Assembly: GCA_050287965.1 (NCBI GenBank)
Contig: JBNKCX010000025.1
Span: 6,233 to 70,232, forward strand
Direction: 5' to 3'
Source: Sedimenticolaceae bacterium
GTDB taxonomy: Bacteria; Pseudomonadota; Gammaproteobacteria; Chromatiales; Chromatiaceae
DNA length: 64,000 nt
Below are positions 14,381 to 55,954 of this stretch, in pieces (position 1 is the first letter of the stretch; each line of letters starts with the position of its first letter). The translations under genes and the position numbers were made by a program. The notes under the pieces are model-generated. The model was not told the DNA's origin. It searched no databases and worked only from the letters and a program-made list of their open reading frames with translations.

Positions 14381-14429
14381 GTTGTCAGTTGTCAGTTGTC
14401 AGTTGTCAGTTGTCAGTTGTCAGTTGATA
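14381..14429. repeat. Tandem heptamer array (GTTGTCA) x6 plus one degenerate unit
   Basis: Counted directly from the sequence. The complement is (TGACAAC)n, a rotation of ACTGACA. It supplies the last codons and the TGA of the four-helix-bundle ORF. Confidence 0.95.
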
Positions 14430-14778
14430 GTTTTATCGATTTAATTAGGCCTGACAGCATCCGTTTTAATTCTTCTAGCTTTCTATTCAACTCATCGAAT
14501 TTTGACGAGGGTATCCACCCGAGGTCTCTTGCAAGAAGCAGATGATATTCGGTTTCGCTAGCTGATCCGAATGAAATCCGGAGAAAACGAATCATTTCCT
14601 TCTCCCCACCACGCCCGCATCCCTCTGCAATATTTGTCGGTATTGACGCACATGATCGACGTAACTGACTAATTAATCCATATCTCTCTTCATCTGGAAA
14701 TACGTTCGTCAATTTATATACATCAAGTGTAAGATTATGCCCTTTGTTCCACACTGATAGTTTTTTGAAGTCTTGCAT
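14413..14778 (-). CDS. Four-helix-bundle protein (23S rRNA intervening-sequence protein / Avd family)
   Basis: 121 aa. FKKLSVWNKGHNLTLDVYKLT...FPDEERYGLISQLRRSCASIPTNIAEG...YHLLLARDLG matches the family pattern from memory. AAGGA lies 11 nt upstream of the ATG. Confidence 0.75.
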   Translation of the reverse strand: MQDFKKLSVWNKGHNLTLDVYKLTNVFPDEERYGLISQLRRSCASIPTNIAEGCGRGGEKEMIRFLRISFGSASETEYHLLLARDLGWIPSSKFDELNRKLEELKRMLSGLIKSIKLSTDN

Positions 14779-14864
14779 CCTTGCATAGTCCTTTTCGGTT
14801 GTTCGCTTACAGAAGCCCGCCTATATATTTCAGATTATAAGTAATCGCTCTTAGTGACTAATTC

Positions 14865-14962
14865 ACTGATAACTGATAACTGATAACTGATGACTGATAA
14901 CTGATAACTGATAACTGATAACTGATAACTGATAACTGATGACTGATGACTGATGACTGATG
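14865..14962. repeat. Tandem heptamer array (ACTGATA/ACTGATG) x14
   Basis: Counted directly: 9 ACTGATA and 5 ACTGATG units. It ends 5 nt before the TAA of the asnB-like gene. The unit is a rotation of TAACTGA. Confidence 0.95.
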
Positions 14963-14966
14963 ACTA

Positions 14967-16850
14967 TTAACCCTTAATAAACTCCCCAAACATCAATAAC
15001 GTCCACATGGCCGCACTATGGTCCCACCTTCCGGACTGATGCTGGTTGACCAGAGTCTCCAGATATGCCGGTTTGAAAAGACCTGTATCCATCATTGCAC
15101 TACCAAGGATATTGTCCCTAACCTTCTCCCGCAGGGGACCACGGAACCAGGTGGCCAGGGGGACCGAGAACCCCATTTTTGGGCGGTAGAGAATCTCTTT
15201 CGGCAGCTTCTGTTCCAGCGCCTTCTTGAAGATATATTTTCCCTCCCGCCCCTTCAGTTTCAGCTCCGGCGGTAAACCTGAGATCCAGTCAACCACCTCA
15301 TGATCGAGGATAGGGACCCGGACCTCCAGAGCGTGCGCCATACTGGCCCGATCAACCTTGGTAAGAATATCACCCGCAAGATATGTCTTGAAATCCAGAT
15401 ACTGAACCAGCGATTGAGGATGATTTGTCGGAGCCTGCCGCGCATAGTGCCGGAACACCTCTATGGCCCGGTATCCCTGAAGATCCCGCTTCAATCCGGT
15501 GCTGAACAGGGAGTCACGCATTTCGTTGGAAAGAACGGAAACGCTGTGCAGATAACCCTCCAAAGAGTCTCGGGCCATGGACTGCAGAGTGCTTTTGGCG
15601 CGGAACACCTTGGGCGCCCAATCGGCCTTTGGGTATACGCTGCCCAGAAATCCGAACAGGGGGCGCCTGATAACGGCCGGCACCAGAGAACGCATCTTTT
15701 CCTCATAGGTATGCCAGCGATAACGGCGGTAGCCCGCCAGGTTCTCGTCCCCTCCGTCTCCCGACAGCACCACCGTAACCTGTTTCTTCGCCAATTCGCA
15801 TACCCGATAGGTCGGGAGAGCCGAGCTGTCGGCGTAGGGCTCGTCATACAAACCGGCGAGACGATCGATCAGCGCGAAATCATCCGGGTCAACCTGCTCC
15901 ACCCGATGTGCGGTCCGATATCTATCGGCCACCATGGCGGCATATGCGGACTCGTTGAATTTAGGATCGCCGAACGAAATGGAACAGGTATTAACCGGGT
16001 CATCCGAAATACCAGCCATCAGGGCCACCACGGCGCTTGAATCCACCCCTCCGGAGAGGAACGCCCCCAAAGGCACCTCCGCGATCATACGGATCTTTAC
16101 CGCCTCTCGCAGCCTGGATATGAGCTCTTCCCCGGCTTCTGTCTCGCTCATGGGCGCATGCGGCCGAAAAGCGACATCCCAGTACTGCTCAGGTCTCAGC
16201 TCCCGTTGACCGCGCTTAACGGCCAACCGGAAACCCGGCGGCAATTTATATACTCCTTTGTAGATAGTTTTTGGATCGGGGACATAGCCGAATGCAAAAT
16301 AGTCCTCCACCGCGGTAGAATCTATCTCCCGCGGCAGCCTGTCATGAACCTTCAGGGACTTCAACTCCGAACCAAACAGCAGGGTACCATCCGGAAGCAT
16401 GGCGTAATAAAGCGGCTTGATCCCCAGCCTGTCGCGAGCCAGAAACAGGGTATCCCTGTTGCGGTCCCAGATACCAAAGGCAAACATGCCACGGAACCTC
16501 TCCACACAGGCCTCTCCCCACTCTTCCCAGGCGTGGACTATCACCTCCGTATCGCAATGGGTGCGAAACTGATGGCCATGCGCCTTTAGCTCCTCGGAAA
16601 GTTCAGGAAAGTTATAAATCTCACCGTTATAGGTTACTACCACGGACCCGTCTTCATTGAACAGCGGCTGTTGCCCGCTGGAGATATCGATTATGGAGAG
16701 ACGGCGATGACCGAACCCTAAACCCGGCTCCGTATGCAAACCGCCCTCATCCGGTCCGCGATGGAACTGGGTTTCATTCATCCGCGACAGGAGATCACGG
16801 GAGATTTCCCGTTTACCTGTTGTATCAAAGATTCCGACTATGCCGCACAT
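14967..16850 (-). CDS. Asparagine synthase (glutamine-hydrolysing)-like amidotransferase, exosortase-locus type
   Basis: 627 aa. N-terminal MCGIVG (Ntn Cys2) and PP-loop SGGVDSS. Confidence 0.85.
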   Translation of the reverse strand: MCGIVGIFDTTGKREISRDLLSRMNETQFHRGPDEGGLHTEPGLGFGHRRLSIIDISSGQQPLFNEDGSVVVTYNGEIYNFPELSEELKAHGHQFRTHCDTEVIVHAWEEWGEACVERFRGMFAFGIWDRNRDTLFLARDRLGIKPLYYAMLPDGTLLFGSELKSLKVHDRLPREIDSTAVEDYFAFGYVPDPKTIYKGVYKLPPGFRLAVKRGQRELRPEQYWDVAFRPHAPMSETEAGEELISRLREAVKIRMIAEVPLGAFLSGGVDSSAVVALMAGISDDPVNTCSISFGDPKFNESAYAAMVADRYRTAHRVEQVDPDDFALIDRLAGLYDEPYADSSALPTYRVCELAKKQVTVVLSGDGGDENLAGYRRYRWHTYEEKMRSLVPAVIRRPLFGFLGSVYPKADWAPKVFRAKSTLQSMARDSLEGYLHSVSVLSNEMRDSLFSTGLKRDLQGYRAIEVFRHYARQAPTNHPQSLVQYLDFKTYLAGDILTKVDRASMAHALEVRVPILDHEVVDWISGLPPELKLKGREGKYIFKKALEQKLPKEILYRPKMGFSVPLATWFRGPLREKVRDNILGSAMMDTGLFKPAYLETLVNQHQSGRWDHSAAMWTLLMFGEFIKG

Positions 16851-16860
16851 TGTTAGTTCG

Positions 16861-16957
16861 AAGTTATAAGTTTGAAGTTATAAGTTTGAAGTTTGAAGTT
16901 TGAAGTTTGGGGAGAAGCATAAATTCCGAATAGCCATTATCTACAAACTTCATACTT
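16861..16957. repeat. Heptamer hairpin element: (AAGTTTG/AAGTTAT) x7, 34-nt centre, inverted (CAAACTT CATACTT)
   Basis: Counted directly. It fills the gap between the asnB-like start (16850) and the stop of the upstream GT (16958). Confidence 0.9.
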
Positions 16958-18124
16958 CTAACCTCCAACCAGCCCATCATACACCGATATATACTGCTCC
17001 ACTGTTCTGTCCCAATTGAACTGCGATCTTACTTTTCCCAATCCGGCCTCACCCATGGTCTTTACCAATTCCCGATCGCTGACAAACTCCTGTAGACAGG
17101 CGGTTATTGAGGCCGGGTTTTCTTTCGGAACCAGCCGGCCGTTTACACCGTCTTCCACCAATTCCGGGTTTCCGCCGACATCGGTGGCGATAACGGGGAG
17201 CCCCGTCGCCATCGCCTCCAGCAGGGTATTGGATATACCCTCCCCGAGAGACGGCAAGACAAAAACATCAAAAAGCCTTAACAACTCGGAGATATCGTTC
17301 CTTTCACCCGCCATCCAGACATACTCCGCCAAACCCCATCGCAAAATCAGCTCCTCCAGCTGCCTGCGCATGGGACCCTCTCCTGCAATAATCAGTCTGA
17401 AATCCCGCCTGTTCCCCGGATTTTGATCCAACAGTCCCTTAAAAGCACTGATGAGGGTCGCTTGGTCCTTAACCGCCGCCAACCTACCTACGGTACCGAT
17501 CACAAACGGCTTTTCCGACAGAAACCCGGCAGGAGCGATATCCGGTGTCACGCCGTCCTTCGGCCTGAACAGATCCTGATCAACCCCGTTATAGATCTGG
17601 ATCACCTTATCTTGAGCCACACCTACCGTCTTTAACAACCAGTACTGCAGATCCCTGCTGACCGCAACATATCGATCGACAAAAAGACTCACAGCCTTCC
17701 TGAGCAGGTTATATTTCCTGTTTTTACCTTCAATATCAAAGACATCCCTACCATGCTCGCCATGCACCGTGCTCGCACCCGACAAAAACCAGGCCGGAAT
17801 CTGGGCCTCCAGGGCGGCCAGATTTCTGGTATGTACGATTGTCGGATTCAGGGTTTTTAGGACCTTCCACAGCTTCCAATACAACCTGAAGCTATGTCCT
17901 GCTTCGCTATGCAATGAAATTAGTGGTACGCCGGGCCTTGCGATACGTTTTGCAAACTCACCCGCCTCCGTCAGGCAGATGATGGCATGCCGGTACCGCT
18001 CGTCCGGCATGTGGTTAATGATATTAACCAACCCGTTCTCCAGCCCTCCGGTTCCCAGACTGTATATAACATGCACCACCAACGGTATTTCGGTATCCGG
18101 CTTCATGGCTCTACCGGCAACCAT
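16958..18124 (-). CDS. Glycosyltransferase family 4 (PEP-CTERM/exosortase-associated sugar transferase type)
   Basis: 388 aa. Motif EGISNTLLEAMATGLPVIATDVGGNPELV. Confidence 0.8.
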   Translation of the reverse strand: MVAGRAMKPDTEIPLVVHVIYSLGTGGLENGLVNIINHMPDERYRHAIICLTEAGEFAKRIARPGVPLISLHSEAGHSFRLYWKLWKVLKTLNPTIVHTRNLAALEAQIPAWFLSGASTVHGEHGRDVFDIEGKNRKYNLLRKAVSLFVDRYVAVSRDLQYWLLKTVGVAQDKVIQIYNGVDQDLFRPKDGVTPDIAPAGFLSEKPFVIGTVGRLAAVKDQATLISAFKGLLDQNPGNRRDFRLIIAGEGPMRRQLEELILRWGLAEYVWMAGERNDISELLRLFDVFVLPSLGEGISNTLLEAMATGLPVIATDVGGNPELVEDGVNGRLVPKENPASITACLQEFVSDRELVKTMGEAGLGKVRSQFNWDRTVEQYISVYDGLVGG

Positions 18125-19308: not shown

Positions 19309-19339
19309 TTTCGGGCGTCAGCGATCCGGATGGCTCTTC

Positions 19340-21249: not shown

Positions 21250-21306
21250 ATCTCTCTAAATCACTCTATACTGCGGGGAATCCCGACCGTAACGGCAGGA
21301 CCGCTC

Positions 21307-24084: not shown

Positions 24085-25077
24085 TTATTCTGCCGTTTCA
24101 GTATTCGAAGACTTGCGTTTATAGCCGTAGCCGTAGCCATAACCGTAGCCGTATCCGTAACCATGTTTATCGCCGAGCTTGCGCTGTGACTTGTTAAGCA
24201 CCATTCCTATGACCTTGTCATCCCCCAAATGCCTGATCGCCTCCTTGACCGCTTCCTGCGAGGTCTCCTCCGCGGCAACCACAAATACGATCTGCCCCAT
24301 ATGGTTTGCCAGCACGCCCGCTTCCGTCGTTACCAGGAGAGGCGGAGAATCAAAAATGACCACACGATCCTTATAGCGCGTTGACAATTCCAACATCACC
24401 GAGCCCATGCTCTCGCTGGCAAGCAATTCCGTCGCCCGATCATGGGCGTGCCCCGCAGGAAGCACGCGTAGATTCGGAACATTGGTGGGTAATAAAACAT
24501 CCTGCAGTTGCACATCCTTGTTAATCAACACGTCGATCAATCCGGGGCCATCGGATATGCCTAATAACTGCGCAGCCGAGGCCTTGGAAACATCCGCATC
24601 CACGAGCAGCACCGTCTTGTCCTGCTCCATGGCGATACTCATTGCCAGATTCACCGCGGAAAAGGTTTTTCCTTCCCCGGCAAGAGCGCTGGTAACCATA
24701 ATAAGGTTCGCGTTATCAATCAGAGAGGCACCCTTACCTTCAATATTCATCAGCAGGGGCCGCTTGATACCTCGATATTCCTCTGCAATTCGGCTTTTGG
24801 GAACATCCGGCGTTATCATCCCCAGGGATGCCAATTTAGCCAAAGGCAGATTTACTTTCTCCGGCTTTGGCCTGTCATCCTGTTCCGAAGACTTGTTTTC
24901 CGGAACATCGGGGGCTGGACGACCTCTGGATTGGGATGGCACAGCGGTTTCGGCTCCGGCCATATTCTCCTGAAGCCCAACGGTTGTCTCCCTGGAGACA
25001 TCATCCGACTTTTCACGTGCCGAGGGTTTCCTGCCCCCCTTCTGAATCTTATCAACAGCCTTTTCGATAATACTCAT
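24085..25077 (-). CDS. Exopolysaccharide tyrosine autokinase (BY-kinase, cytoplasmic type)
   Basis: 330 aa. Walker A SALAGEGKTFS, Walker A' VLLVDADV, Walker B VVIFDSPP, and a C-terminal Tyr cluster HGYGYGYGYGYGYGYKRK. Confidence 0.85.
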   Translation of the reverse strand: MSIIEKAVDKIQKGGRKPSAREKSDDVSRETTVGLQENMAGAETAVPSQSRGRPAPDVPENKSSEQDDRPKPEKVNLPLAKLASLGMITPDVPKSRIAEEYRGIKRPLLMNIEGKGASLIDNANLIMVTSALAGEGKTFSAVNLAMSIAMEQDKTVLLVDADVSKASAAQLLGISDGPGLIDVLINKDVQLQDVLLPTNVPNLRVLPAGHAHDRATELLASESMGSVMLELSTRYKDRVVIFDSPPLLVTTEAGVLANHMGQIVFVVAAEETSQEAVKEAIRHLGDDKVIGMVLNKSQRKLGDKHGYGYGYGYGYGYGYKRKSSNTETAE

Positions 25078-39683: not shown

Positions 39684-39696
39684 AACGTCATTATAA

Positions 39697-39803
39697 GTTG
39701 TCAGTTTTCAGTTTTCAGTTGTCAGTTGGCACCCGGTTCGCGCTTAGAAGGTGCTCCTACGAGCGTTAACTGAAAACTGACAACTGAAAACTGACAACTG
39801 ATA
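39697..39803. repeat. Heptamer hairpin element: 5 units (GTTGTCA/GTTTTCA/GTTGGCA), 37-nt centre, 5 inverted units (ACTGAAA/ACTGACA/ACTGATA)
   Basis: Counted directly. It lies between the uvrC start (39683) and the udg-family stop (39805). The arms are about 30/35 complementary. Confidence 0.9.
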
Positions 39804-39804
39804 A

Positions 39805-40425
39805 CTACAACAACCCCCGTGCCCGAGCGAACACCGCCTGAAACATCTCAGCGGTGAGTCGTCTGGTCTGGGTGTTATAACGGCTGCAGTGGTAAGAATC
39901 GATGAGGCGTAGCCCCTCGGGCAAGAGGTGCAGACGGTCATGGCCGAAGGGGTACATCTTCTGGCGCAGCCCCTTGGCTTTGATGACGGCATTGTGGGCG
40001 ATGGAACCGAGGGCGAGAACCACCGCCGCCGGAGGCAGACTGTCGAGTTCCTTCTTCAGGAATCCGTTACAGGTATTGATCTCAACCCCTATCGGTTTGT
40101 TCTGAGGCGGCAGGCACTTCACCGCATTGGTAATCCGGCAATTCAAAAGACGCAGACCATCCGACGCCGACAGGGACTCCGGGGAGGAACCGAAACCGAA
40201 TCGGTAGAGGGTCTCGTACAGCAGGATACCGGCATAATCCCCGGTAAAGGGGCGTCCGGTGGCATTTGCGCCGTGCATCCCCGGGGCCAGCCCCACCACC
40301 AGCAGACGGGCATCAGGATCGCCAAAAGGGGCGACCGGACGGGCATGATAGTCAGGATAGGCCGTTTTTACTTCGTCGAGAAACGTGGCCAGGCGCGGGC
40401 ACGCGCGGCAGTCAGGATCGAACAC
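39805..40425 (-). CDS. Uracil-DNA glycosylase superfamily protein (family 4/5-like)
   Basis: 206 aa. Motif LLVVGLAPGMHGANATGRPFTGD and C-terminal HCSRYNTQT. Confidence 0.75.
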   Translation of the reverse strand: MFDPDCRACPRLATFLDEVKTAYPDYHARPVAPFGDPDARLLVVGLAPGMHGANATGRPFTGDYAGILLYETLYRFGFGSSPESLSASDGLRLLNCRITNAVKCLPPQNKPIGVEINTCNGFLKKELDSLPPAAVVLALGSIAHNAVIKAKGLRQKMYPFGHDRLHLLPEGLRLIDSYHCSRYNTQTRRLTAEMFQAVFARARGLL

Positions 40426-41078: not shown

Positions 41079-41191
41079 GCCCCAATTGTCCCGCGGCTAC
41101 CGCCTTCCCCAACGGTATGGAATTGCCTGAGAATAACAGAGGAATCGGGCTGTAACAAACGGTGATTTGTCGGATCCGGCGCCGGTATGTC

Positions 41192-41241
41192 GTTGTCAGT
41201 TGTCAGTTAACAGTGGGCTGCGGGCAGTGTTGTCAGTTGCC
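41192..41241. repeat. Direct heptamer units (GTTGTCA x2, GTTAACA, then GTTGTCA, GTTGCCG after a 16-nt gap)
   Basis: Read directly. It lies between the uvrY start and the stop (41248) of the membrane-protein ORF. Confidence 0.8.
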
Positions 41242-41967: not shown

Positions 41968-43692
41968 TCAGCGCACCTTGACCCGCAGCGCCTCTTCGCC
42001 GTTCTCGTCCATAAGATGAACGGCGCAGGCGATGCAGGGATCGAAACTATGGATGGTGCGCAGGATCTCAACCGGCTGATCCACATCCGCCAGAACATGA
42101 TTGTCCTGCAGCGCCGCTTCATAGGCCCCCGGCTGACCCGAGGGATCCCGGGGCCCGGCATTCCAGGTGCTCGGCACCACGGCCTGGTAATTGGCGATCT
42201 TGCCGTCTTCGATCACCACCCAATGGCCCAGGGCGCCACGCGGTGCTTCCATGAACCCCACACCCCTGGCCTCCGCGGGCCAGGTCGCCGGATCCCAAAG
42301 AGCCTCATTGAAGGTCTTGGTATCGCCGGCTTTGATATTGGTCACCAGTCCGTCATACCAGCCCTGCATGGCGTCCGCCAGTATCTTGGTCTCCAGGGTA
42401 CGGGCCGCAGTACGCCCTAAGGTTGAAAACAACGCACGCACCGGGATATCCAGATGCCTGAGGGTCATCTCCACCAGTTCCCGCGTCTGTTCATGGCCGG
42501 TGGCATGCAGCATCAATACCCGTGCAAGGGGCCCTACCTCCATCGCCTTACCCTTCCAGCGAGGGGCCTTGAGCCAGGAGTAGTCTTTATCCACGTCCAG
42601 ATGTTCATAGGGGGGTTCCGGCCCCGTATAGTTGAGGCTGGTTTCACCGTCATAGGGATGCAATCCCTGCTCCTTGTCGTCGGAGTATTCGTACCAGGAA
42701 TGTCCGATGAACTCCTGGATCTCCTCCGGATTGTTGATATCGATCGGGTGCACGGTGGAAATATCCCGATCAAGAATCACGCCGGAGGGGAATAAGTAAC
42801 CGGAAGGATCGTCCATATCCGTCGCCGGCAGATCACCGTAACAGAGAAAATTTCCCAACCCCTCTCCGCGCAGACCCCAGTCCTTGTAGAAGGAAGCGAT
42901 GGCCAGGGTATCCGGCAGGTAGACCTGATCGACGAACACACGCATCTGATCGATCACCTCCTGGACCTGCTGCAATCGCTTGGCGTTGATGGCCGAATCC
43001 GAATTCAGGTCGATGGCGGAAGCCACGCCCCCCACGAGAAAATTGGGATGGGGATTCTTACCGCCGAATATGGTGTGAAGCTTTACCACGTCCCGCTGCC
43101 AGGCTAATGCCTCCAGATAATGGGCTACCGCCATGAGGTTGGCTTCCGGCGGAAGCTTATAGGCCGGATGACCCCAATAGGCCTTGGCGAAGATCCCCAG
43201 TTGCCCGGTTTCCACAAACCCCTTCAACCGCTCTTTCATGTCCGAGAAATAACCGGCGGACGACTTGGGCCAATGTGGAGAAACCTGCTGCGCCAGTTCC
43301 GAGGTGGCCTTGGGATCGGCATCCAGGGCCGACACCACATCCACCCAGTCCAACGCATGCAGGTGATAGAAATGCATGACATGGTCGTGGATATACTGGG
43401 CCCCGATCATCAGATTGCGAATAAGCTGGGCGTTGGGCGGAATCTTATATCCCAGGGCGTTCTCCACCGCCCGCACCGAGGCGATTCCGTGCACCAGGGT
43501 GCAGACTCCGCAGATACGCTGGGCGTAGGCCCAGGCATCACGCGGATCCCGACCGCGCAGGATAATCTCGATACCCCGCACCATGGTGCCCGCCGAATAG
43601 GCCTGGGCGATCCTGTTCCCCTCCATCTGCGCTTCGATACGCAAATGCCCTTCGATACGTGTGACTGGATCAACAACGATTCGATCACTCAT
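41968..43692 (-). CDS. hynL: [NiFe] hydrogenase large subunit (group 1, Isp-type)
   Basis: 574 aa. N-terminal RIEGH and RICGVCTLVH (L2). C-terminal DPCIACAVH followed by a 15-aa cleavable extension. Confidence 0.95.
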   Translation of the reverse strand: MSDRIVVDPVTRIEGHLRIEAQMEGNRIAQAYSAGTMVRGIEIILRGRDPRDAWAYAQRICGVCTLVHGIASVRAVENALGYKIPPNAQLIRNLMIGAQYIHDHVMHFYHLHALDWVDVVSALDADPKATSELAQQVSPHWPKSSAGYFSDMKERLKGFVETGQLGIFAKAYWGHPAYKLPPEANLMAVAHYLEALAWQRDVVKLHTIFGGKNPHPNFLVGGVASAIDLNSDSAINAKRLQQVQEVIDQMRVFVDQVYLPDTLAIASFYKDWGLRGEGLGNFLCYGDLPATDMDDPSGYLFPSGVILDRDISTVHPIDINNPEEIQEFIGHSWYEYSDDKEQGLHPYDGETSLNYTGPEPPYEHLDVDKDYSWLKAPRWKGKAMEVGPLARVLMLHATGHEQTRELVEMTLRHLDIPVRALFSTLGRTAARTLETKILADAMQGWYDGLVTNIKAGDTKTFNEALWDPATWPAEARGVGFMEAPRGALGHWVVIEDGKIANYQAVVPSTWNAGPRDPSGQPGAYEAALQDNHVLADVDQPVEILRTIHSFDPCIACAVHLMDENGEEALRVKVR

Positions 43693-43708
43693 TATTTTTT
43701 ATCCCGAT

Positions 43709-44167
43709 TCAGGAACCCAAAAATTCATTCAGGATGGCGTACTGCCGGTCGTTTTCAGATAGCGAATTCCCGCTGTCAACCTCGGCGGCGACCATACAGG
43801 TACGCGCCATACGGCTGCTCATGGCCGCCTGCCATGCCGGACCCGCTCCAAAGGACTTTTTCTGAGGTGCCAGGCAGGCGGCCGCCGCCCGGGCCACGAA
43901 ATAGCTGGCCTGTTCCGCCCAGGAACAATCCGCTCCGCAGCGGGCATGTTTATCCAGCCACACCTTGTTGGCGACCTTATAGGCCGCATCCAGTTCGTCC
44001 TCGGAGGCATCCCCGGTAACCGCCACCTGCACCGCGCGTTTCAACCGCTCATCGCTGCAAAGTTCGACCACGTCCATGACAAACAACGCGCCTGCCTGCC
44101 GTTGCCGATCCAGATCAAGACCCTCCAGCGCCTGCCTCATTTCATGGTCATTCGTTACGGTAGCCAT
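43709..44167 (-). CDS. Hypothetical protein encoded inside the hydrogenase structural operon
   Basis: 152-aa ORF. Its ATG overlaps the isp2 TGA by 1 nt (TGATG), and it ends 16 nt before the hynL ATG. No motif was recognised. Confidence 0.55.
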   Translation of the reverse strand: MATVTNDHEMRQALEGLDLDRQRQAGALFVMDVVELCSDERLKRAVQVAVTGDASEDELDAAYKVANKVWLDKHARCGADCSWAEQASYFVARAAAACLAPQKKSFGAGPAWQAAMSSRMARTCMVAAEVDSGNSLSENDRQYAILNEFLGS

Positions 44168-45441
44168 CAGGAATCCTCTCCTTTCTCAACCAGGTGTTCA
44201 GCCAGCAACTCGGTCAATCCCAGTACCGGCAACTCCATCTTGTTCAGCTCCAATCCCTCTTCCAGGGTGATGCGGCAATTGGCACAGGCGGTAACCACCA
44301 GGTCCACGTTGAGTTCATCCAGCTGGCGTTTCTTGCGCCGGAAGGCGGTGAACTTGATCTCCTCCGCCCGCTCGTTGGCACTCACCCCGCCACCACCGCT
44401 GCAGCACCAGTTCATCGCCCCATGGTCCCGCATTTCCACAAAATTGGCGGCAACCGCGTGCAGAAGATTGCGCGGCTGCTCCACCACCCCGCCGCGACGG
44501 GCAATCTGGCAGGGATCATGGTAAGTGAGCCGCGCCTGCTCCAGACCCTCGGTGCGGAGTTTTCCCTGCCGACGCAGTTCATCCAGTATTTCCAGGATAT
44601 GCCGCACCTTGAATCCAAAAGGGCGCCCCATCAGATTCGGCCCCTCGAAACGTATCGCCATATAGGCGTGTCCGCACTCCGGACTCACCACCGTCTGCAC
44701 GTTCAACTCTTCCGCCGCAAGCACCACGCGACTGACCAGTTCCCGCGCCAGATCGGAAACCCCGATCTGAATGCCGCTGTTGGTGGCTTCGAACGCCTTG
44801 CTGGAGATGGTCCAGCTCTTGCCCGCCTGTTTGAATATGCGTGCGATGGCCTCCAGGTACTCGGGAAAATTCATGATCTCCATGGAGGACAGAAGCACCA
44901 TGAACTCAACGTCCGGGCGGTCCAGGGGGATCTCCAGCCCGGTATCCTGCTGCACGTGACTGATCTGGGCCTCCAGGGCGGGCAACCTGACCCCCATGGG
45001 ACTGCCGACAGTGATGGAACGGGTGACCGCGCCCACCAGGCCCTCGGGCGCATGCCCGGCGGCGGCAAAACCCTCCCGGATCTTACGGATCATGCCGGTG
45101 ATGTCGTTACCCACCGGGCACGCCAGGGAACAGCGGCCGCACATGGAACAGCCGTCGTATACCAGGGTCTCCCATGCGCTGAAATCCTCCTCCGTAACCG
45201 GCTCCGACCATCCGACCAGCGATTTGAGCTTGCCCCAGAGGGTGTATTCCTGCTCCCAGACCCGGCGCATCAATTCCACCTTGTGGATGGGCGTATACCT
45301 CGGGTCCCCGCTTTCGGTAAAGAACAGGCAGGCCTCGGCGCAGAGGCCGCAATGCACGCAGGCGCTGAAAAAACTGGCTACCGGCGCATCAATCTGCTCC
45401 TTTATAAAGCGAACACCCTTTTCGACTGTCGCGGCGCTCAT
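44167..45441 (-). CDS. isp2: Isp2, HdrD/DsrK-like Fe-S protein of the Isp hydrogenase
   Basis: 424 aa. Ferredoxin-type CVHCGLCAEAC and CSMCGRCSLACP motifs, plus CCG-domain motifs (PECGHAY, NWCCSGGGG, CANCR). Confidence 0.85.
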   Translation of the reverse strand: MSAATVEKGVRFIKEQIDAPVASFFSACVHCGLCAEACLFFTESGDPRYTPIHKVELMRRVWEQEYTLWGKLKSLVGWSEPVTEEDFSAWETLVYDGCSMCGRCSLACPVGNDITGMIRKIREGFAAAGHAPEGLVGAVTRSITVGSPMGVRLPALEAQISHVQQDTGLEIPLDRPDVEFMVLLSSMEIMNFPEYLEAIARIFKQAGKSWTISSKAFEATNSGIQIGVSDLARELVSRVVLAAEELNVQTVVSPECGHAYMAIRFEGPNLMGRPFGFKVRHILEILDELRRQGKLRTEGLEQARLTYHDPCQIARRGGVVEQPRNLLHAVAANFVEMRDHGAMNWCCSGGGGVSANERAEEIKFTAFRRKKRQLDELNVDLVVTACANCRITLEEGLELNKMELPVLGLTELLAEHLVEKGEDS

Positions 45442-46097
45442 GATTCCACCCCTCTATGACCCGCACGGTAACCCTGATACCAGCGGGCCAGAACAAAACT
45501 GAGCATGTGGGTCAACTTGCTGAACGGGGCTACCACCAACAGGACCTCCACACTGAGAATATGCAGTGCCAACATCAGCGTATACGGCAGCAGCAGGTGG
45601 TTGTACGCAAGATAACCGGTTACCAGCGGCAGCAAGGTAACGGTCCAGGCCAGATAATCTCCCGCCGTACTGAGAAACCGCATCACCGGGTGTCCCAGGC
45701 GAAAGGCCAGCGCTCCCGCCATGGACAGGATGGTGACCGCGGTCAGCGCGTCGATCACCCCGGCAGGCAGCCCCGGCCAACTGAGACCGGTAAGATTCTC
45801 GATCAGCACAATATGAGGAACATGAAAAAAGATCACCGCCAATAGGCCGATATGCATCACATAGCCGTTGGCGATACGCAGGGGCGCCACTTCGAACAGT
45901 TCCCGGCGGGGAAAACTGCGCGACCACAGGGTACGAAACCCGCCTTTCAGGGCGCTGCCCCGTTGTTCCGACAAATCCGGCGCGTTGCCCAGGCTGATGA
46001 TCTCAAACAGGCGCACCAGCATCCCGAACACGAATATCAACAGGGCGATATTCAGGCCCGGCCCGCGAACCCAAATCAGCAGTTCATTGGCGCTCAT
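45438..46097 (-). CDS. isp1: Isp1, NarI/DsrM-like membrane di-haem cytochrome b
   Basis: 219 aa with 5 TM helices and conserved His residues in the helices. It sits between hynS and isp2 with 4-nt overlaps on both sides. Confidence 0.8.
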   Translation of the reverse strand: MSANELLIWVRGPGLNIALLIFVFGMLVRLFEIISLGNAPDLSEQRGSALKGGFRTLWSRSFPRRELFEVAPLRIANGYVMHIGLLAVIFFHVPHIVLIENLTGLSWPGLPAGVIDALTAVTILSMAGALAFRLGHPVMRFLSTAGDYLAWTVTLLPLVTGYLAYNHLLLPYTLMLALHILSVEVLLVVAPFSKLTHMLSFVLARWYQGYRAGHRGVES

Positions 46098-47191
46098 TCA
46101 TCGGACTCCTTGGTCAGATCATCGGTGGTTAGAGTTTCGTGAGCCGCCTTGCAGGCCGCCTTGCTGCCGCGGTTACGCGCCCCCATCAAGGCGCCTGCCG
46201 CGACCCCTGCCACCGCTGCGGTAAAGAGCGTGCCGCTGGCGTTGCCGGTGGGTTCGGAAAGGGCCTCATAGAATCCGCCCGCATCCCAGAAATCCGGCTC
46301 CGAACAGCCGAGACAGCCGTGGCCCGACTCGATTGGAAAACTGGTACCCTGATTCCACTTCGCCGTGGCGCAGGCATTGTAGGTGGTCGGTCCCTTGCAA
46401 CCCAGTTTGAACAGACACCATCCGGCCCGAGCCCCCTCATCATCGAAGGTCTCGGCAAACTCCCCCCGCTCATAGAACGGACGCCGGTAACAGCGATCAT
46501 GAATACTGGTGCCGTAAAACACCTTGGGCCGGCGCAGATCGTCCAGTTCCGGCAGGGAGCCGAAGGTGAGAAAGTGGGCCAGTACACCGGTGATCACCAC
46601 GGGGATAGGCGGACATCCCGGCACGTTGATCAGCGGCTTGTCCGTCACGATATCCGCAACCGGCACCGCGCCGGTGGGATTTGGATCCGCGTGGGGGATA
46701 CCGCCAAAGGCGGCGCAACTGCCGACGGCGATGACCGCCGCCGCAGCGGCCGCCGTTTCCTGCAACATATCCAGGTTGCTTCTGCCGGCGATGGTGGAAT
46801 AACCCGGATTATCCAGCGGGACGGAACCGTCCACCACCAGCAGATAGTTCCCGCTGTTTTCCCGCATGGCCGCTTCCCGCGCAGCTTCCGCCCGCTCCCC
46901 CGAAGCGGCTTGAAGGGTATGGTGATAATCGAGGGAGATATGATCGAGAATCAGGTTCTCCACCGTGGGCGTATGGCTGCGGGTAAGGGATTCGGTACAA
47001 CCGGTGCACTCCTGGAAAGACAACCAGATCACGGACGGCCGCCGGGCGCGTTCCAACGCTTCGGCTATCTTCGGTACCAGGGCGGGAGAGAGCGCCATCA
47101 ATGAAGCGGTGGCGGTACAGAACTTCATGAACCCGCGTCGACTTATCCCCTGTCGCCGCAGAACATCACCCAACGTAATGTAATCAGCCAT
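46094..47191 (-). CDS. hynS: [NiFe] hydrogenase small subunit with Tat signal
   Basis: 365 aa. Tat motif SRRGFMKF and motif VIWLSFQECTGCTESL. Confidence 0.95.
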   Translation of the reverse strand: MADYITLGDVLRRQGISRRGFMKFCTATASLMALSPALVPKIAEALERARRPSVIWLSFQECTGCTESLTRSHTPTVENLILDHISLDYHHTLQAASGERAEAAREAAMRENSGNYLLVVDGSVPLDNPGYSTIAGRSNLDMLQETAAAAAAVIAVGSCAAFGGIPHADPNPTGAVPVADIVTDKPLINVPGCPPIPVVITGVLAHFLTFGSLPELDDLRRPKVFYGTSIHDRCYRRPFYERGEFAETFDDEGARAGWCLFKLGCKGPTTYNACATAKWNQGTSFPIESGHGCLGCSEPDFWDAGGFYEALSEPTGNASGTLFTAAVAGVAAGALMGARNRGSKAACKAAHETLTTDDLTKESDE

Positions 47192-48204: not shown

Positions 48205-48409
48205 ATCAGGGGACCTCTGATCAAGACCGTGCCGGCCGTATCGCTATGGCCTGCGCACCGCGCGTTGCGATCATCGCCATCGTGGTCACAAACTCGGCTC
48301 ATCAGCGACATAATCTAAGAAGCTCCATAGCCCTGGAATCAGAAAGCTTTTTGTATTGTCAAACTCGAGTATAGTTACTGTAAGCCTTACCAGACGGAAG
48401 CAATGGATT

Positions 48410-48992: not shown

Positions 48993-49008
48993 AATCCAGG
49001 AACTGAAT

Positions 49009-49782: not shown

Positions 49783-49801
49783 GCCGCCCCGGGAAACAAT
49801 C

Positions 49802-50908: not shown

Positions 50909-50989
50909 GCCCGGCGCACCCGCTCGGCTTTCTTCGGACCGCGGTGGTAAGGTAAAGATTCGTTATCCCTGTAGCTGGAGAAAACCACT

Positions 50990-51994: not shown

Positions 51995-52025
51995 GATAAG
52001 GGGGGTGTTCCGGGTAAAACCTCAA

Positions 52026-52041
52026 ACACAATATGTAGTGA
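52026..52041. promoter_or_regulatory. NrdR box (distal)
   Basis: ACACAATATGTAGTGA matches the 16-bp NrdR palindrome consensus acaCwAtATaTwGtgt at 14/16 positions. Confidence 0.55.
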
Positions 52042-52149
52042 TGATACATATTTCACATTTTTTACGCTTTTTCACCTATAAAAATAAGAAGAATTTTTAA
52101 CTTATTGTTTTTTATGTTTATTCCATTTCTCTAATACACCCGTTTTTCC

Positions 52150-52178
52150 TTGACACACCCCCGTTTTAGACCTAATCT
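52150..52178 (+). promoter_or_regulatory. Sigma-70-type promoter upstream of nrdJ
   Basis: TTGACA-17 nt-TAATCT. It lies 12 nt upstream of the proximal NrdR box. Confidence 0.5.
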
Positions 52179-52189
52179 TTTGCCCCGAA

Positions 52190-52205
52190 ACACAAGATAT
52201 TGTGT
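52190..52205. promoter_or_regulatory. NrdR box (proximal)
   Basis: ACACAAGATATTGTGT matches the NrdR consensus at 15/16 positions and is near-perfectly palindromic. Confidence 0.65.
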
Positions 52206-52391
52206 TTTTAAATTCCGGGCTAAATCCAGGTATTTCTGGGGTTTAACCCGCAACCAAAGTCATTCTGAAGCAGCCCGTCGCCCTCCAGCCGTCGGGCTGC
52301 TTGGGGGGATATCCGGCAACCATCTCAGCACCCGCAACCCGGGTGAAGGGGCCGGGTTTCAAACAACAAATAACTATCGGGAAGGATACGC

Positions 52392-54551
52392 GTGTCTAGT
52401 AAAAGCGCTCACTTGAAAGCTGTTCCATCAAAAGTCTCCGACATTCCGCTGCAAGAAGCCTCGCTGGATATCTGGAATACCAAGTACCGACTCAAGACCA
52501 AGGACGGGACCCCGGTGGATCAGGATATCGACGCAACCTACCGGCGTGTCGCCAAGGCCCTGGCGAAGATCGAAAAGACCCCGGAGCTGCAGGAAAAATG
52601 GGAAGAACAGTTTTTGTGGGCATTGCGTCACGGCGCCATCCCTGCCGGCCGGATCACCTCCAACGCCGGCGCCCAGAAGCATAAACCGGCCACCTCAACC
52701 ATAAACTGCACGGTCTCCGGGACCATTCACGACTCCATGAATGAGATCCTCGGCAAGGTGCACGAGGCGGGCCTGACCCTGAAAGCGGGTTGCGGTATCG
52801 GCTACGAGTTCTCCACCCTGCGCCCGCGGGGGGCCTACGTCAGCGGTGCCGGTGCCTATACCTCCGGCCCCCTCTCCTTCATGGACATCTATGACAAGAT
52901 GTGTTTCACCGTCTCCTCCGCCGGGGGTCGCCGCGGGGCGCAGATGGCCACCTTTGATATCGGACACCCCGACGTCATGGATTTTATCCGCGCCAAACGG
53001 GAGGCCGGTCGCTTGCGACAGTTCAACCTCTCGCTGCTCGTCACCGAGGAATTCATGGAGGCGGTCAAGAGCGACGGCAAATGGAACCTCGCTTTCCCGG
53101 TTTCGGAGAAAGAGGCGGAGGCCGACGGACTGGATCTGAGCAACTCGGAACAGATCGTCTGGCGTGATTGGCCCCATCAGACCGGTTATATCGTCAACGG
53201 TACCGGCAAGGTTGCCTGCAAAATCTACAAAACCATCCGCGCCCGCCGTCTGTGGGACGTCATCATGTCCTCCACCTACGATTATGCGGAACCGGGTTTC
53301 ATACTCATCGACAAGGTCAATGAGATGAACAACAACTGGTTCTGTGAGAATGTACGCGCCACCAATCCATGTGGTGAACAGCCGCTACCACCCTACGGCG
53401 CCTGTCTGCTCGGCTCCATCAACCTCACCCAGTTTGTACGCCAACCCTTTACCGATGAAGCAAGTTTTAATTGGGATGAATTCCGCAAAACGGTCTCCAT
53501 CTTTACCCGCATGCTGGACAATGTGGTGGAAATAAACGGCTTGCCGCTGGAAGAGCAGCGCAAGGAGATCATGCGCAAACGACGCCACGGCATGGGTTAC
53601 CTCGGACTTGGTTCCGCCATCACCATGTTAGGTATGAAATATGGGAATCCTGATTCTCTTAAATTCACCGAGCAGGTCACGCGGGAACTCGCCCTGGAAG
53701 GATGGCGCACCGGCCTGGAACTGGCCAAGGAGAAAGGCCCCGCTCCGATCATGGAGGAGGAGTTTGAGATTACCCCGGAAATGCTGGCTCAGCGGCCGGA
53801 GATGGCGGTAGACAACTGGCAGGTGGGAGACAAGATCAAGGGCAAGGTGTTACACACCAGATACAGCCGCTATATGCAGCAACTGGCGATGGAGGAACCG
53901 AAACTGGTTGAGGCACTGGCCGAAACCGGCTGTCGATTCACCCATCACAGCTCCATTGCACCTACCGGCACCATATCACTGTCGCTGGCCAACAACGCCA
54001 GCAACGGTATCGAGCCCAGTTTCGCGCATCATTATTCACGCAACGTTATTAGGGAAGGCAAGAAATCCAAAGAAAAGATCGACGTCTTCAGCTTCGAACT
54101 TCTGGCATACCGGGCCCTGGTCAACGCAAACGCCATGCCCTATTCCGAGAATCCCGATGAACAACTGCCGGAATACTTCGTTTCCGCGGACGACATCACT
54201 CCCAAGCAACATGTGGATGTTCAGGCGGCGGCTCAGAAATGGATCGACTCCTCCATATCCAAAACAGCCAACGTTCCCACCGATTATCCTTACGAAGAGT
54301 TCAAGGATATTTACCTATATGCCTATGAGCAGGGTCTGAAGGGATGCACCACCTTCCGTTTCAATCCGGAGGCGTTCCAGGGCGTACTGGTGAAAGAACA
54401 GGATCTGAAGAACACCACCTACTGTTTCACACTGGAGGACGGCACCGTGGTCGAGGTGAAAGGTAATGAAGAGATTGAATACGACGGTGAAACCCATACT
54501 GCGGCCAATCTCTTCGATGCCCTGAAAGAGGGTTATTACGGCAAATTTTGA
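52392..54551 (+). CDS. nrdJ: Class II (adenosylcobalamin-dependent) ribonucleotide reductase, large N-terminal polypeptide
   Basis: 719 aa with a GTG start. Active-site loop ATNPCGEQPLPPYGACLLGSINL and motif TINCTVSG. The C-terminal part of the enzyme is encoded separately (next ORF), as in the split NrdJa/NrdJb of Pseudomonas. Confidence 0.85.
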   Translation: MSSKSAHLKAVPSKVSDIPLQEASLDIWNTKYRLKTKDGTPVDQDIDATYRRVAKALAKIEKTPELQEKWEEQFLWALRHGAIPAGRITSNAGAQKHKPATSTINCTVSGTIHDSMNEILGKVHEAGLTLKAGCGIGYEFSTLRPRGAYVSGAGAYTSGPLSFMDIYDKMCFTVSSAGGRRGAQMATFDIGHPDVMDFIRAKREAGRLRQFNLSLLVTEEFMEAVKSDGKWNLAFPVSEKEAEADGLDLSNSEQIVWRDWPHQTGYIVNGTGKVACKIYKTIRARRLWDVIMSSTYDYAEPGFILIDKVNEMNNNWFCENVRATNPCGEQPLPPYGACLLGSINLTQFVRQPFTDEASFNWDEFRKTVSIFTRMLDNVVEINGLPLEEQRKEIMRKRRHGMGYLGLGSAITMLGMKYGNPDSLKFTEQVTRELALEGWRTGLELAKEKGPAPIMEEEFEITPEMLAQRPEMAVDNWQVGDKIKGKVLHTRYSRYMQQLAMEEPKLVEALAETGCRFTHHSSIAPTGTISLSLANNASNGIEPSFAHHYSRNVIREGKKSKEKIDVFSFELLAYRALVNANAMPYSENPDEQLPEYFVSADDITPKQHVDVQAAAQKWIDSSISKTANVPTDYPYEEFKDIYLYAYEQGLKGCTTFRFNPEAFQGVLVKEQDLKNTTYCFTLEDGTVVEVKGNEEIEYDGETHTAANLFDALKEGYYGKF

Positions 54552-54685
54552 TGATTAATCAGCCGCGGTGGCACTAGAGAACCCAGAGATTTCCTATCCC
54601 CGGTATTTTTATACCCGCGCGGCGGAAATCACCTAGACTAAAAACAGATTCGGATAAAAAAACCGAATAGACAGGATCGAATATC

Positions 54686-55375
54686 ATGACCATCAAAATC
54701 GAAAAGAAAATCGTCGACTACAGTGTCGCCAAGGAAGAGGAAGCCGTTCGGACACCGGAGGCCGCCGCCTCTGAGGACGACATTGTCCACATGCATGAAA
54801 ATGTGGCCCGGCCGGAGATGCTTTTCGGCTCCACCTATAAGATCAAGACCCCTCTCTCGGAGCATGCCCTCTATGTCACCATAAATGACATTATCCTCAA
54901 CCAGGGAACACCCCATGAGGTACGCCGCCCGTTCGAGGTCTTCATCAACTCCAAAAATATGGACCACTTCCAGTGGATAGTGGCATTAACCAGGATCATT
55001 TCAGCCGTATTCCGCAAGGGGGGCGATGTCACCTTTCTGGTGGAAGAGCTGCGTTCCGTCTTTGATCCCAGCGGTGGATATTTCAAGAAAGGCGGCAAAT
55101 TCATGCCCTCCCTGGTGGCGGAGATCGGAGACGTCATTCACTGCCACCTGGTCATGATCGGCCTGTTGCAGGAAGAAGTACCGGACGAGCACCAGAAAAA
55201 GCTCATTGCCGAGAAAAGGGCGCAATACGAGGCGTCCATCAATATGAAAGACCGGGAGCACGGCAGCGATTTTCCCGAAGGTGCTCAGCTATGCACCAAG
55301 TGCAGCACCAAGGCAATGATTCAGATGGACAACTGCCTGACCTGTCTCAACTGTGGTGAGTCCAAGTGTGGGTAG
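54686..55375 (+). CDS. Class II ribonucleotide reductase, C-terminal polypeptide (NrdJb-like)
   Basis: 229 aa. Conserved FEVFINSKN...WIVALTRIISAVFRKG and a Cys-rich tail CTKCSTKAMIQMDNCLTCLNCGESKCG. Confidence 0.75.
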   Translation: MTIKIEKKIVDYSVAKEEEAVRTPEAAASEDDIVHMHENVARPEMLFGSTYKIKTPLSEHALYVTINDIILNQGTPHEVRRPFEVFINSKNMDHFQWIVALTRIISAVFRKGGDVTFLVEELRSVFDPSGGYFKKGGKFMPSLVAEIGDVIHCHLVMIGLLQEEVPDEHQKKLIAEKRAQYEASINMKDREHGSDFPEGAQLCTKCSTKAMIQMDNCLTCLNCGESKCG

Positions 55376-55460
55376 TTATGAAGTTTGAAGTTTCGCGACG
55401 CATTGCGCCGCCCCGGCAACTGAAGACTGATAACTTCAAACTACCAACTTTTTACTTTTA
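55376..55460. repeat. Heptamer hairpin element with GC-rich centre (ATGAAGTTTGAAGTTTCG - GCGACGCATTGCGCCGC - ACTGAAG ACTGATA ACTTCAA ACT...)
   Basis: Read directly. It starts at the first base after the nrdJb TAG. The left arm AAGTTTGAAGTT is complementary to AACTTCAAACT in the right arm. Confidence 0.85.
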
Positions 55461-55657
55461 ACCATGCCTGCTGCTTACCCCCAATATTTCGCCCGTGCCG
55501 CCACCCGCCCGGGCCAATTTGCCGGGGTATTTAGACCCATCCTAAATATCCCCCATGTCGGGCTATTTTTGCCTCCTATTTCCGCCCGAAAGCTGTTCTA
55601 TAAGCCGTCATAATCGCTATAATCAACCTTATTCAATAATAAGCTGAGGTAACAGGG

Positions 55658-55900
55658 ATGAATACTGAACGACGCACAGGCCAGGAGCCCGTTCCAAGGA
55701 ATCCGGAACGTCATCTGAATACCACTCAATTATCGGTCCTGCATCGGGTCGAGAGTTTCGGTTGGAAACTTAAATTCCTGCGCCGACCCTTGTTCCAGGA
55801 AACGGTCGCCGTGATAACCAATGCCGACGGCTCGCAGACCGGGGTATTGGAGGAAGACGGCGAGATCAATATGAACTCCGAGGTCCCGTTTAGGGAGTAA
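55658..55900 (+). CDS. Small hypothetical protein (80 aa)
   Basis: GAGG lies 10 nt upstream of the ATG. The ORF fills most of the unit between two inverted repeat copies. No motif was recognised. Confidence 0.5.
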   Translation: MNTERRTGQEPVPRNPERHLNTTQLSVLHRVESFGWKLKFLRRPLFQETVAVITNADGSQTGVLEEDGEINMNSEVPFRE

Positions 55901-55920
55901 TCGGAACTCGCTGGTGGTAG

Positions 55921-55954
55921 AAGCGGCGCTTAGCGCCGCGAAACTTCGAACTCC
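55921..55954. repeat. Inverted copy of the AAGTTTCG + GCGRCGC-NNN-GCGCCGC module
   Basis: The reverse complement GGAGTTCGAAGTTTCGCGGCGCTAAGCGCCGCTT matches 55379-55412 at 26/34 positions by hand alignment. Confidence 0.8.

Follow-up and report, generated by a model that had tools for sequence, protein, structure and literature searches.

What do tandem heptamer arrays do at the boundaries of genes inside operons, and why do so many of them face each other as inverted pairs? The question is raised by a 64,000-nucleotide stretch of contig JBNKCX010000025.1 of a Sedimenticolaceae bacterium (the window, by which we mean this entire stretch). We find that the arrays at 14865 to 14966 and 14380 to 14435 are the two arms of an insertion of approximately 590 bp that carries a four-helix-bundle (4HB) gene of the PF05635 family, and that this cassette is of the intervening-sequence type, lodged in an mRNA operon rather than in an rRNA gene. 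The other sites of the window are gene-less arm pairs or lone forward arms of the same repeat class. Our favored explanation, to which we give about an even chance of being correct, is that inverted arrays of the TAACTGA-type class form operon-internal stems that serve as RNase III-type punctuation.

The cassette is made up of the following parts.

14865 to 14966, plus strand: 5' arm, 14.4 copies of ACTGATA/ACTGATG; on the coding (minus) strand this is a stop-free reverse arm, (UAUCAGU)n.
14834 to 14839, minus strand: candidate -10 box TATAAT in CTTATAAT, ~55 nt 5' of the 4HB ATG.
14413 to 14778, minus strand: gene for the four-helix-bundle protein, 121 amino acids, assigned by profile matches.
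14380 to 14435, minus strand: 3' arm, 6.7 forward copies of CAACTGA plus degenerate units, holding the 4HB stop codon.

The encoded protein matches TIGR02436 (E value, 1.4e-39) and PF05635 (23S_rRNA_IVP; E value, 4.5e-39), with a weak match to bAvd (PF22296). It is mildly basic (pI of ~8.7 to 9), its PDB relatives 2gsc and 2rld were each deposited with five chains, and a dN/dS of 0.10 to 0.18 for the gene indicates that it is under purifying selection. A preliminary description of this DNA, made from the sequence alone, had treated the gene as a mere neighbor of the repeats, but the two largest arrays are the arms of a cassette that carries it. In an exopolysaccharide (EPS) operon, this element separates the TIGR03108 amidotransferase gene from the TIGR04063 glycosyltransferase gene: the 5' arm starts 1 nt after the amidotransferase stop codon (14967 to 14969), the 3' arm ends 4 nt 5' of the stp3 glycosyltransferase GTG (14375), and the forward array itself encodes the final ~5 codons and the TGA stop of the 4HB gene. 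Its GC content is 39.4%, compared to 54.5% for the window, and both the minimum-energy and the centroid fold pair the outer arms around the gene. No rRNA was found in the window with Rfam, and the element lies outside any 23S or 16S rRNA gene. The TATAAT at 14834 to 14839 may be the -10 element of the cassette's own promoter, and the same motif is also present in the metagenome cassettes described below.

That arms and gene together constitute an insertion follows from the related loci that lack them, from the architecture of one locus that has them (L015), and from the low GC content. For comparison we used 80 loci of named genomes encoding an XrtA-system amidotransferase with 66 to 79% identity, the nearest of which (78 to 79%) belong to Sedimenticola and to a metagenome-assembled genome (MAG) of the Chromatiaceae. 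In all 8 related EPS loci inspected, the glycosyltransferase start (MKILHILDHS) is found within ~40 nt of the amidotransferase stop. Period-7 arrays were recovered in 1 of the 80 loci, L015, which is also the sole locus with a 4HB gene; arrays and gene occupy the same junction there with the same architecture, the heptamer is a different one (TTAGCGA/CGCTAAC), and the outer arms again pair around the gene in both minimum-energy and centroid folds. The closest protein relative (L174, 74% identity) is likewise encoded after the same amidotransferase and has the same ACTGA core, and the next two relatives (70 to 71% identity) have ACTGC cores.

The association of gene and arrays extends well beyond this junction. 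The 4HB protein has thousands of homologs, many of them on contigs of <1 kb, and the fetched contigs of the closest homologs all end no more than 50 nt from the gene, in or at the downstream array (4 of 4). In a metagenome set of 80 4HB loci that were selected by protein similarity alone (50 to 64% identity), period-7 arrays number 4.75 per 10 kb, compared to 0.25 in the 80 control loci. A flanking period-7 array accompanies 59 of the 71 genes with enough flanking sequence (upstream in 40, downstream in 47, on both sides in 28, and on neither in 12), and 105 of 171 arrays fall within the ~250-nt zones beside 4HB genes, which make up ~6% of the sequence. On the gene strand the upstream arm reads (TCAGCnn)n or (TTAGCnn)n, complemented by a downstream arm of (GCTGAnn)n or (GCTAAnn)n; the array encodes the last codons and the stop of the 4HB gene, and the next gene frequently starts in or directly after the downstream array. 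Arm complementarity, expressed as an ungapped score (RNA duplex energies were dropped since they were implausibly large even for shuffled arms), is 13.2 within cassettes versus 9.3 between cassettes (P = 6e-7) and 6.9 for shuffled arms. Most 4HB genes are co-oriented with their neighbors (56 versus 10 upstream; 37 versus 14 downstream), and proteins that are 50 to 60% identical go with differing heptamer cores. In many of the loci L088 to L153 the cassette lies 5' of a gene starting (MADS)FDYVIIGSGFGGS, GMC-type oxidoreductase-like by eye, and array units (TGATGGCTGACAGC) make up the ATG and first codons of that downstream gene; in several, the gene 5' of the cassette ends in ...GRGFYQY*, 3-hydroxyacyl-CoA dehydrogenase-like by eye.

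Annotated plasmids with a 4HB gene come mainly from cyanobacteria. Among 14 named plasmid loci, 13 have flanking arrays, which are inverted in 12, and the units are mutually unrelated (GTAGGGA/TCCCTAC, AGGAGTC/GACTCCT, GGCAGAA/CCTTCTG, GGGAAGA/TCCCTTT, and GGTGACA/TGTCACC). One of these loci, in Azospirillum, is a true 23S rRNA intervening sequence. A distant 4HB gene (29% identity) on a plasmid of Gemmatirosa kalamazoonensis (L175, 530 to 1080) has arms of an 8-nt unit (AGGAGGGC / CTCCTGCC), and the array period is therefore not strictly seven. Three plasmid cassettes lie inside CRISPR-cas operons of cyanobacteria, at the cas6/cas4 junction in Pseudanabaena and Anabaena sp. 90 and at the cas10/cmr3 junction in Picosynechococcus.

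L162, 1286 to 1965: 4HB cassette in a cas operon; its arrays are direct, not inverted (15 copies of AAAGCTA and 10 of AAAGCCA).
L179, 332 to 1107: 4HB cassette in a cas operon.
L178, 657 to 1084: 4HB cassette in a cas operon.

A PF05635 gene bracketed by inverted arrays is found in at least the cyanobacteria, alpha- and gammaproteobacteria, and Gemmatimonadota, and the cassettes insert cleanly between operon genes, including those of EPS, CRISPR-cas, and ribonucleotide reductase operons. Some of the arrays at 4HB genes on Nostoc plasmids (AGTGGGG/TCCCTAC) resemble STRR1 of the cyanobacterial short tandemly repeated repetitive (STRR) sequences, which are tandem heptanucleotides in intergenic DNA (reportedly described by Mazel et al., 1990). 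The STRR consensus and host lineage differ from those of the window arrays, and we found no published link between STRR sequences and PF05635 in the open-access literature. The identical 4HB protein (WP_010994075.1) is encoded on plasmids alpha (L177) and gamma (L166) of Nostoc sp. strain PCC 7120. On gamma, an annotated ISL3-family transposase gene immediately precedes the 4HB gene, and on alpha the upstream sequence resembles, by eye, the 3' end of that transposase gene, which hints that the duplicate may have hitch-hiked with an insertion sequence element.

The nearest precedent is found in rRNA. The 23S rRNA intervening sequence of Coxiella burnetii has an S23p ORF of the PF05635 family and a terminal stem of 28 bp, together with two to three tandem GACAGAT heptamers, strains differing in the count; RNase III was shown experimentally to cut this intervening sequence at the start of the first repeat (Warrier 2016, PMC4990558). 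The window cassette resembles the rRNA intervening sequences of Coxiella burnetii and Leptospira in that a PF05635 ORF lies inside stem-forming terminal inverted repeats; tandem heptamers and a GC content below that of the host are also common to both, and intervening sequences are regarded as selfish insertions. It differs in that it is located between EPS protein genes, not in 23S helix 9, 25, or 45, and in that its arms are far longer arrays abutting the flanking stop and start codons. What appears to be new here, and more important than the inverted architecture considered below, is the finding of such arrays as arms of intervening-sequence-type PF05635 cassettes outside rRNA, in several phyla; we found no paper joining PF05635 genes in general to heptamer arrays in open-access full text, where absence is not proof. 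We tentatively propose, as a possibility with rather less than an even chance, that PF05635 genes in inverted short-period (mostly 7-nt) arrays are a widespread unrecognized class of cassettes, that rRNA intervening sequences are members that landed in rRNA, and that the Avd-like protein binds, maintains, or spreads the arrays.

Another reading, which we consider quite unlikely, is that the 4HB protein, probably a pentamer like Avd, recognizes the arrays as DNA or RNA, so that gene and arms propagate themselves and solo arrays are footprints or targets in trans. Several observations are in keeping with it, including the nearly constant bracketing of the gene by arrays, the ACTG core shared by the closest proteins, the purifying selection, basic pI, and five-chain structures noted above, and the variable presence of the cassette among genomes at one junction. 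Further, solo arrays in 4HB loci have a heptamer identical to that of their own cassette in 10 of 47 cases, versus 2% for other loci (P = 0.0015). The array-rich viral contigs considered below lack the gene, however, there is no mobility enzyme in the cassette or the window, and the differing cores that go with proteins 50 to 60% identical mean that any specificity must be loose. The 4HB protein and Avd of diversity-generating retroelements belong to the same four-helix-bundle superfamily; the window has neither a reverse transcriptase domain nor a template/variable repeat pair, and we rejected a diversity-generating retroelement, as no reverse transcriptase domain is present among the ~50 predicted window proteins. 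A CRISPR-like reading was also rejected, its defining features being missing.

How far do the gene-less sites of the window share this design? The preliminary description had listed seven array sites as one dispersed family of related heptamers at gene boundaries, and the family stands, while two of its sites do not stand as full members. We located period-7 arrays with Tandem Repeats Finder and then confirmed them by reading the sequence itself. This recovered 6.7 copies of AGTTGTC at 14380 to 14426 (100% match), 14.4 copies of ACTGATA/ACTGATG at 14865 to 14965 (96% match, including exact AACTGAT runs of 3 and 6 units), 7.9 copies of AGTTTGA/AGTTATA at 16855 to 16909, an inverted pair at 39696 to 39728 and 39768 to 39806, and short arrays at 41188 to 41208 and 55374 to 55393; CAACTGA and AAACTGA variants occur at other window sites. 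The feature common to all true arrays is AACT (or AGTT) every 7 nt, and chains of this core are far above shuffled expectation (11 chains of at least 2 units versus 0.89, and 7 chains of at least 3 units versus 0.02). True period-7 arrays with an AACT core occupy five of the seven sites, and the remaining two are as follows.

41192 to 41241, minus strand: forward units in two short clusters (2 to 3 copies of AACTGAC, then 1.5), between an ORF and uvrY; a weak member of the family.
55921 to 55954, between convergent genes: an ordinary GC hairpin (gcggcgc-tta-gcgccgc) followed by two AACT units; no array. A second, terminator-like hairpin lies 3' of it at 55964 to 55984.

At the paired sites the order on the coding strand is stop codon, reverse arm, loop, forward arm (AACTnnn), and start codon, and these sites, together with the weak cluster at 41192 to 41241, all lie between co-directional genes. 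Three pairs have no gene between their arms.

16855 to 16910, minus strand: forward arm, 8 units of AACTTCA/AACTTAT, ending 4 nt before the amidotransferase ATG (16850).
16943 to 16960, plus strand: short reverse arm, ~2 units (AACTTCA TACTTCT), overlapping the stp2 TAG stop.
39690 to 39730, minus strand: forward arm, 5 units of AACTGAC/AACTGAA, then TATAAT at 39695 to 39690.
39731 to 39767: GC-rich loop of the udg-uvrC hairpin, with a small stem of its own.
39768 to 39809, plus strand: reverse arm, 6 units of AACTGAA/AACTGAC/AACTGAT as read on the plus strand, overlapping the udg TAG stop.
55374 to 55394, minus strand: reverse arm, on the plus coding strand AGTTATG AAGTTTG AAGTTTC, overlapping the nrdJb TAG stop.
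55418 to 55461, plus strand: forward arm of mixed units (AACTGAAG ACTGATA ACTTCAA ACTACCA ACTTTTT ACTTTTA).

The five contacts with stop codons claimed earlier (4HB, amidotransferase, glycosyltransferase, udg family, and nrdJb) are correct on reading the sequence: the 4HB stop (14413 to 14415) lies inside its array, the amidotransferase stop abuts one, and the stops of the stp2 glycosyltransferase (16958 to 16960), the udg-family gene (39805 to 39807), and nrdJb (55373 to 55375) are TAG triplets overlapping the first reverse unit. The forward-oriented arrays at 14380 to 14435, 16855 to 16910, 39696 to 39730, and 55418 to 55461 lie near starts and end 2 to 13 nt 5' of them (stp3 GTG 14375, amidotransferase ATG 16850, uvrC ATG 39683, and, at 2 nt, the ATG at 55464 of a 49-amino-acid ORF), whereas the exact TAACTGA array at 14865 to 14966 is in reverse orientation, 3' of a stop codon. 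No Shine-Dalgarno motif was seen by eye 5' of the stp3 glycosyltransferase, amidotransferase, and uvrC starts. Of four loci described earlier as array, GC-rich center, and inverted array, the udg-uvrC hairpin at 39696 to 39809 is strong (dG of -59 to -61 kcal/mol, z score of -8 to -10; on the sense strand, a stem of ~45 bp with dG of -59.4 and z score of -8.2). Those at 16855 to 16960 (z score of -4.4), where 16943 to 16960 pairs with part of 16855 to 16910, and at 55374 to 55461 (z score of -2.8) are weaker, and the "center" of 14380 to 14966 is in fact a whole gene. No 4HB pseudogene remnant was detected with tblastn at the gene-less array sites of the window. The mixed units at 55418 to 55461 link the ACTGAnA and AACTTCA unit types. 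A motif (ACTTCAAACTT) lying ~35 nt upstream of the 4HB ATG on the Nostoc PCC 7120 and Stanieria plasmids (L166 and L168) matches the AACTTCA unit of the window arrays at 16855 to 16910 and 55432 to 55452.

Operon-internal punctuation, the explanation that we favor, would work in the following manner. Folding predicts a long imperfect stem formed by the two arms in the operon transcript, at whose base the stop codon of the preceding gene and the start codon of the next would lie side by side. By analogy with the Coxiella intervening sequence and with phage T7 sites, the stem is a probable RNase III-type substrate, and its cleavage would excise the insert or insulate it, and would punctuate the operon RNA; by keeping stop and start close, the stem could allow an operon to tolerate an insertion. 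In the forward arm all three reading frames are closed, as had been argued before (ACTGAnA arrays present stops in every frame, and the complementary TATCAGT strand presents none), and this arm may also provide an initiation context for the next gene, Shine-Dalgarno-free or leaderless. At uvrC, where TATAAT lies 6 nt before the ATG, a promoter scan recovered CTGAAA-17-TATAAT with 10 of 12 matches, CTGAAA being part of an array unit, so that an array unit could act as a -35 box 17 nt from TATAAT. Arms built of tandem repeats would allow both pairing and promoter spacing to survive slippage in 7-nt steps. RNase III cleavage, translational coupling across the stem, and promoter use are all inferred. 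The paired arms do fold into long hairpins, and the transcript-end or processing role suggested for them earlier is plausible. In the phage T7 early operon, intercistronic RNase III hairpins are reportedly cleaved to give individual mRNAs with a protective 3' hairpin (Dunn and Studier). Like these T7 sites, the window pairs are long imperfect stem-loops that separate cistrons on a single transcript; each T7 site, however, has a unique sequence, whereas the window pairs are inverted tandem-repeat arrays whose cleavage we propose.

The placement of the forward arms, 2 to 13 nt before the starts of stp3, the amidotransferase gene, uvrC, and ORF 55464 and without Shine-Dalgarno motifs, also suits an explanation that we regard as unlikely: forward arrays would be sites for a trans-acting RNA-binding protein or for specialized ribosomes, replacing the Shine-Dalgarno sequence and defining a posttranscriptional regulon, with the inverted arms secondary. 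Such a binder of forward repeats was proposed for "Maribeggiatoa" (BOGUAY), where the forward-before-start pattern dominates (MacGregor 2015, PMC4679880). Against it, the heptamer varies freely across cassettes while the arms stay complementary, which is difficult to reconcile with one sequence-specific binder; the reverse arms of the window are as regular as the forward arms; and a normal Shine-Dalgarno sequence is kept after the forward arm in the phage-like contig L198 and before the 4HB gene of L015. A trans-acting binder is compatible with punctuation by stems and does not exclude it.

Tandem repeats slip, and copy number differs between Coxiella strains and, in 7-nt steps, between Cyanothece strains (PMC4679880); three of the window sites, moreover, lie in a surface-polysaccharide locus. 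These points would suit contingency (phase-variation) repeats that switch exopolysaccharide and other genes by copy number, a role that we consider very improbable. The arrays are intergenic, so that slippage produces no frameshift; the 7-nt period holds a -35-like unit 17 nt from the -10 at any copy number, which amounts to buffering; and the housekeeping genes uvrC and nrdJ have arrays too. Copy number is also identical in two assemblies of the organism, the independent Logan short-read assembly SRR36185847 being the same as the window base for base at the 39.7-kb and 41.2-kb sites, with the limit that both probably derive from the same sample; a Logan contig ends inside the long array.

Dispersed, intergenic, hairpin-forming, and often inverted, the arrays had also been likened to repetitive extragenic palindromic (REP) sequences or miniature inverted-repeat transposable elements (MITEs), moved by a REP-associated tyrosine (Y1) transposase (RAYT) or another transposase. 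There is indeed a likeness to REP sequences and bacterial interspersed mosaic elements (BIMEs), hairpins that are likewise scattered through intergenic DNA, where the neighboring genes are often convergent or co-directional, and that may stabilize mRNA. However, this mechanism is not supported and strikes us as the least credible of all: the ~50 predicted proteins of the window include no Y1 (RAYT) or other transposase, integrase, or reverse transcriptase, and the units are periodic tandem heptamers, not palindromic REP units of 20 to 40 nt. For a MITE, the loops at 39731 to 39767, 55395 to 55417, and 16911 to 16942 look unrelated (by eye, no alignment), and target-site duplications were not noticed in the sequences read (no systematic search).

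Several results weigh against punctuation by RNA stems. Arm mismatches on the sense strand are A.C in 52 cases and G.U in 29 (P = 0.014); this A.C excess gives no sign of selection for sense-RNA pairing, and a symmetry at the DNA level fits equally well. The long stem of the window cassette is interrupted each 7 nt by a mismatch or a 2-by-2 loop. Of 73 cassettes, 12 have the TATAAT-6-nt-ATG design; these share one genomic context and may represent a single lineage. The cluster at 41192 to 41241 has a single orientation, without an inverted partner, and no structure is predicted there (z score of +0.5). Finally, among viral contigs selected for four tandem (Y)AACTGA units (at least 80 loci, 728 kb; median GC of 38%; 4.66 period-7 arrays per 10 kb), a PF05635 gene was found in 0 of 80 listed at an E value of 1e-5, and the arrays are mostly solo, in one shared orientation. 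It follows that a cassette need not have been the source of any gene-less site in the window. In these contigs a crude test of how arrays are oriented with respect to ORF starts and stops gave a mixed picture, which we did not use since stop-free reverse arrays inflate ORFs. Some of the contigs, such as the phage-like L198 with its AACTGAC/AACTGGC arrays, have stop, reverse arm, forward arm, and start at successive junctions, like udg-uvrC. While the 4HB gene nearly always comes with arrays, the arrays are a wider phenomenon and far commoner than the gene.

The array class itself has been known since 2015 and has gone unexplained. TAACTGA repeats, defined as at least two tandem copies and often separated by related heptamers, were described in Beggiatoaceae, Thiocystis violascens, 15 cyanobacteria, and 5 Bacteroidetes (MacGregor 2015, PMC4679880). 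In BOGUAY they are mostly forward copies just upstream of starts without ribosome-binding sites, in sets of 2 to 6 copies, with one inverted set among 170, and some run into the 3' end of the preceding ORF; PF05635-type genes go unmentioned in that paper and one supplementary file (PMC4679880). The kinship with the repeats of large sulfur bacteria and cyanobacteria that had been suspected for the window arrays is borne out by this work: ACTGATA is a rotation of TAACTGA, single-base variants are mixed in, and the arrays are intergenic. Unlike those of BOGUAY, the window arrays reach up to 14 copies, consist mostly of paired inverted arms starting at the upstream stop, and in one case bracket a PF05635 gene. 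The regular inverted stop-to-start architecture appears to be new to the literature. The further expectation in the preliminary description, that such arrays would be novel in a GC-rich genome, did not hold, given that Thiocystis violascens was already listed in 2015 (PMC4679880), that the architecture is also present in L198, and that short-period inverted arrays surround 4HB genes on the Azospirillum and Gemmatirosa plasmids too.

Other features of the window were recorded in passing. GC content steps from ~45 to 53% in an exosortase/PEP-CTERM polysaccharide locus (1 to 28000) to 55 to 64% in the uvrC-hydrogenase region (28000 to 52000). Within the polysaccharide locus, a TAGCCG/TAACCG hexamer repeat (24122 to 24164) encodes the C-terminal (GY)n tract of a P-loop ATPase (24085 to 25077, minus strand; Pfam matches AAA_31, ParA, and CbiA). 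A Gly-Cys-Leu tRNA cluster adjoins pgsA and uvrC. The [NiFe] hydrogenase operon (41968 to 47191, minus strand) has two extra genes that separate the small-subunit gene from the large-subunit gene; the protein of one has CCG and 4Fe-4S domains, and that of the other has 219 amino acids and no Pfam match. This is the hynS-isp1-isp2-hynL arrangement of purple sulfur bacteria, and together with the tRNA cluster it suggests that the DNA comes from a sulfur-oxidizing gammaproteobacterium; the maturation genes hycI, hypD, and hypE are nearby. A class II ribonucleotide reductase is encoded in two separate ORFs (719 and 229 amino acids; 52392 to 55375, plus strand), and the match of the second is confined to the C terminus of the B12-dependent enzyme. 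An ORF running from 63061 to the window end on the plus strand includes a 27-nt tandem repeat in 14 copies (63231 to 63715) encoding (EETPAEAVA)n, followed by GGxGxD-type (RTX-like) repeats, and its protein runs off the window.

These findings have a practical consequence, in that the arrays break short-read assemblies and many 4HB contigs end in them. They also turn a descriptive curiosity into testable questions about RNase III punctuation, binding of the arrays by the protein, and coupling across the insert, the only experimentally studied member, that of Coxiella, being processed by RNase III. The data tie together three decades-old loose ends, namely, the heptamer repeats, the source of rRNA intervening sequences, and the role of the large PF05635 S23p/four-helix-bundle family, and the cassette class that we tentatively propose would, if real, provide a molecular origin for TAACTGA- and STRR-type heptamers as well as a function for an orphan protein family.

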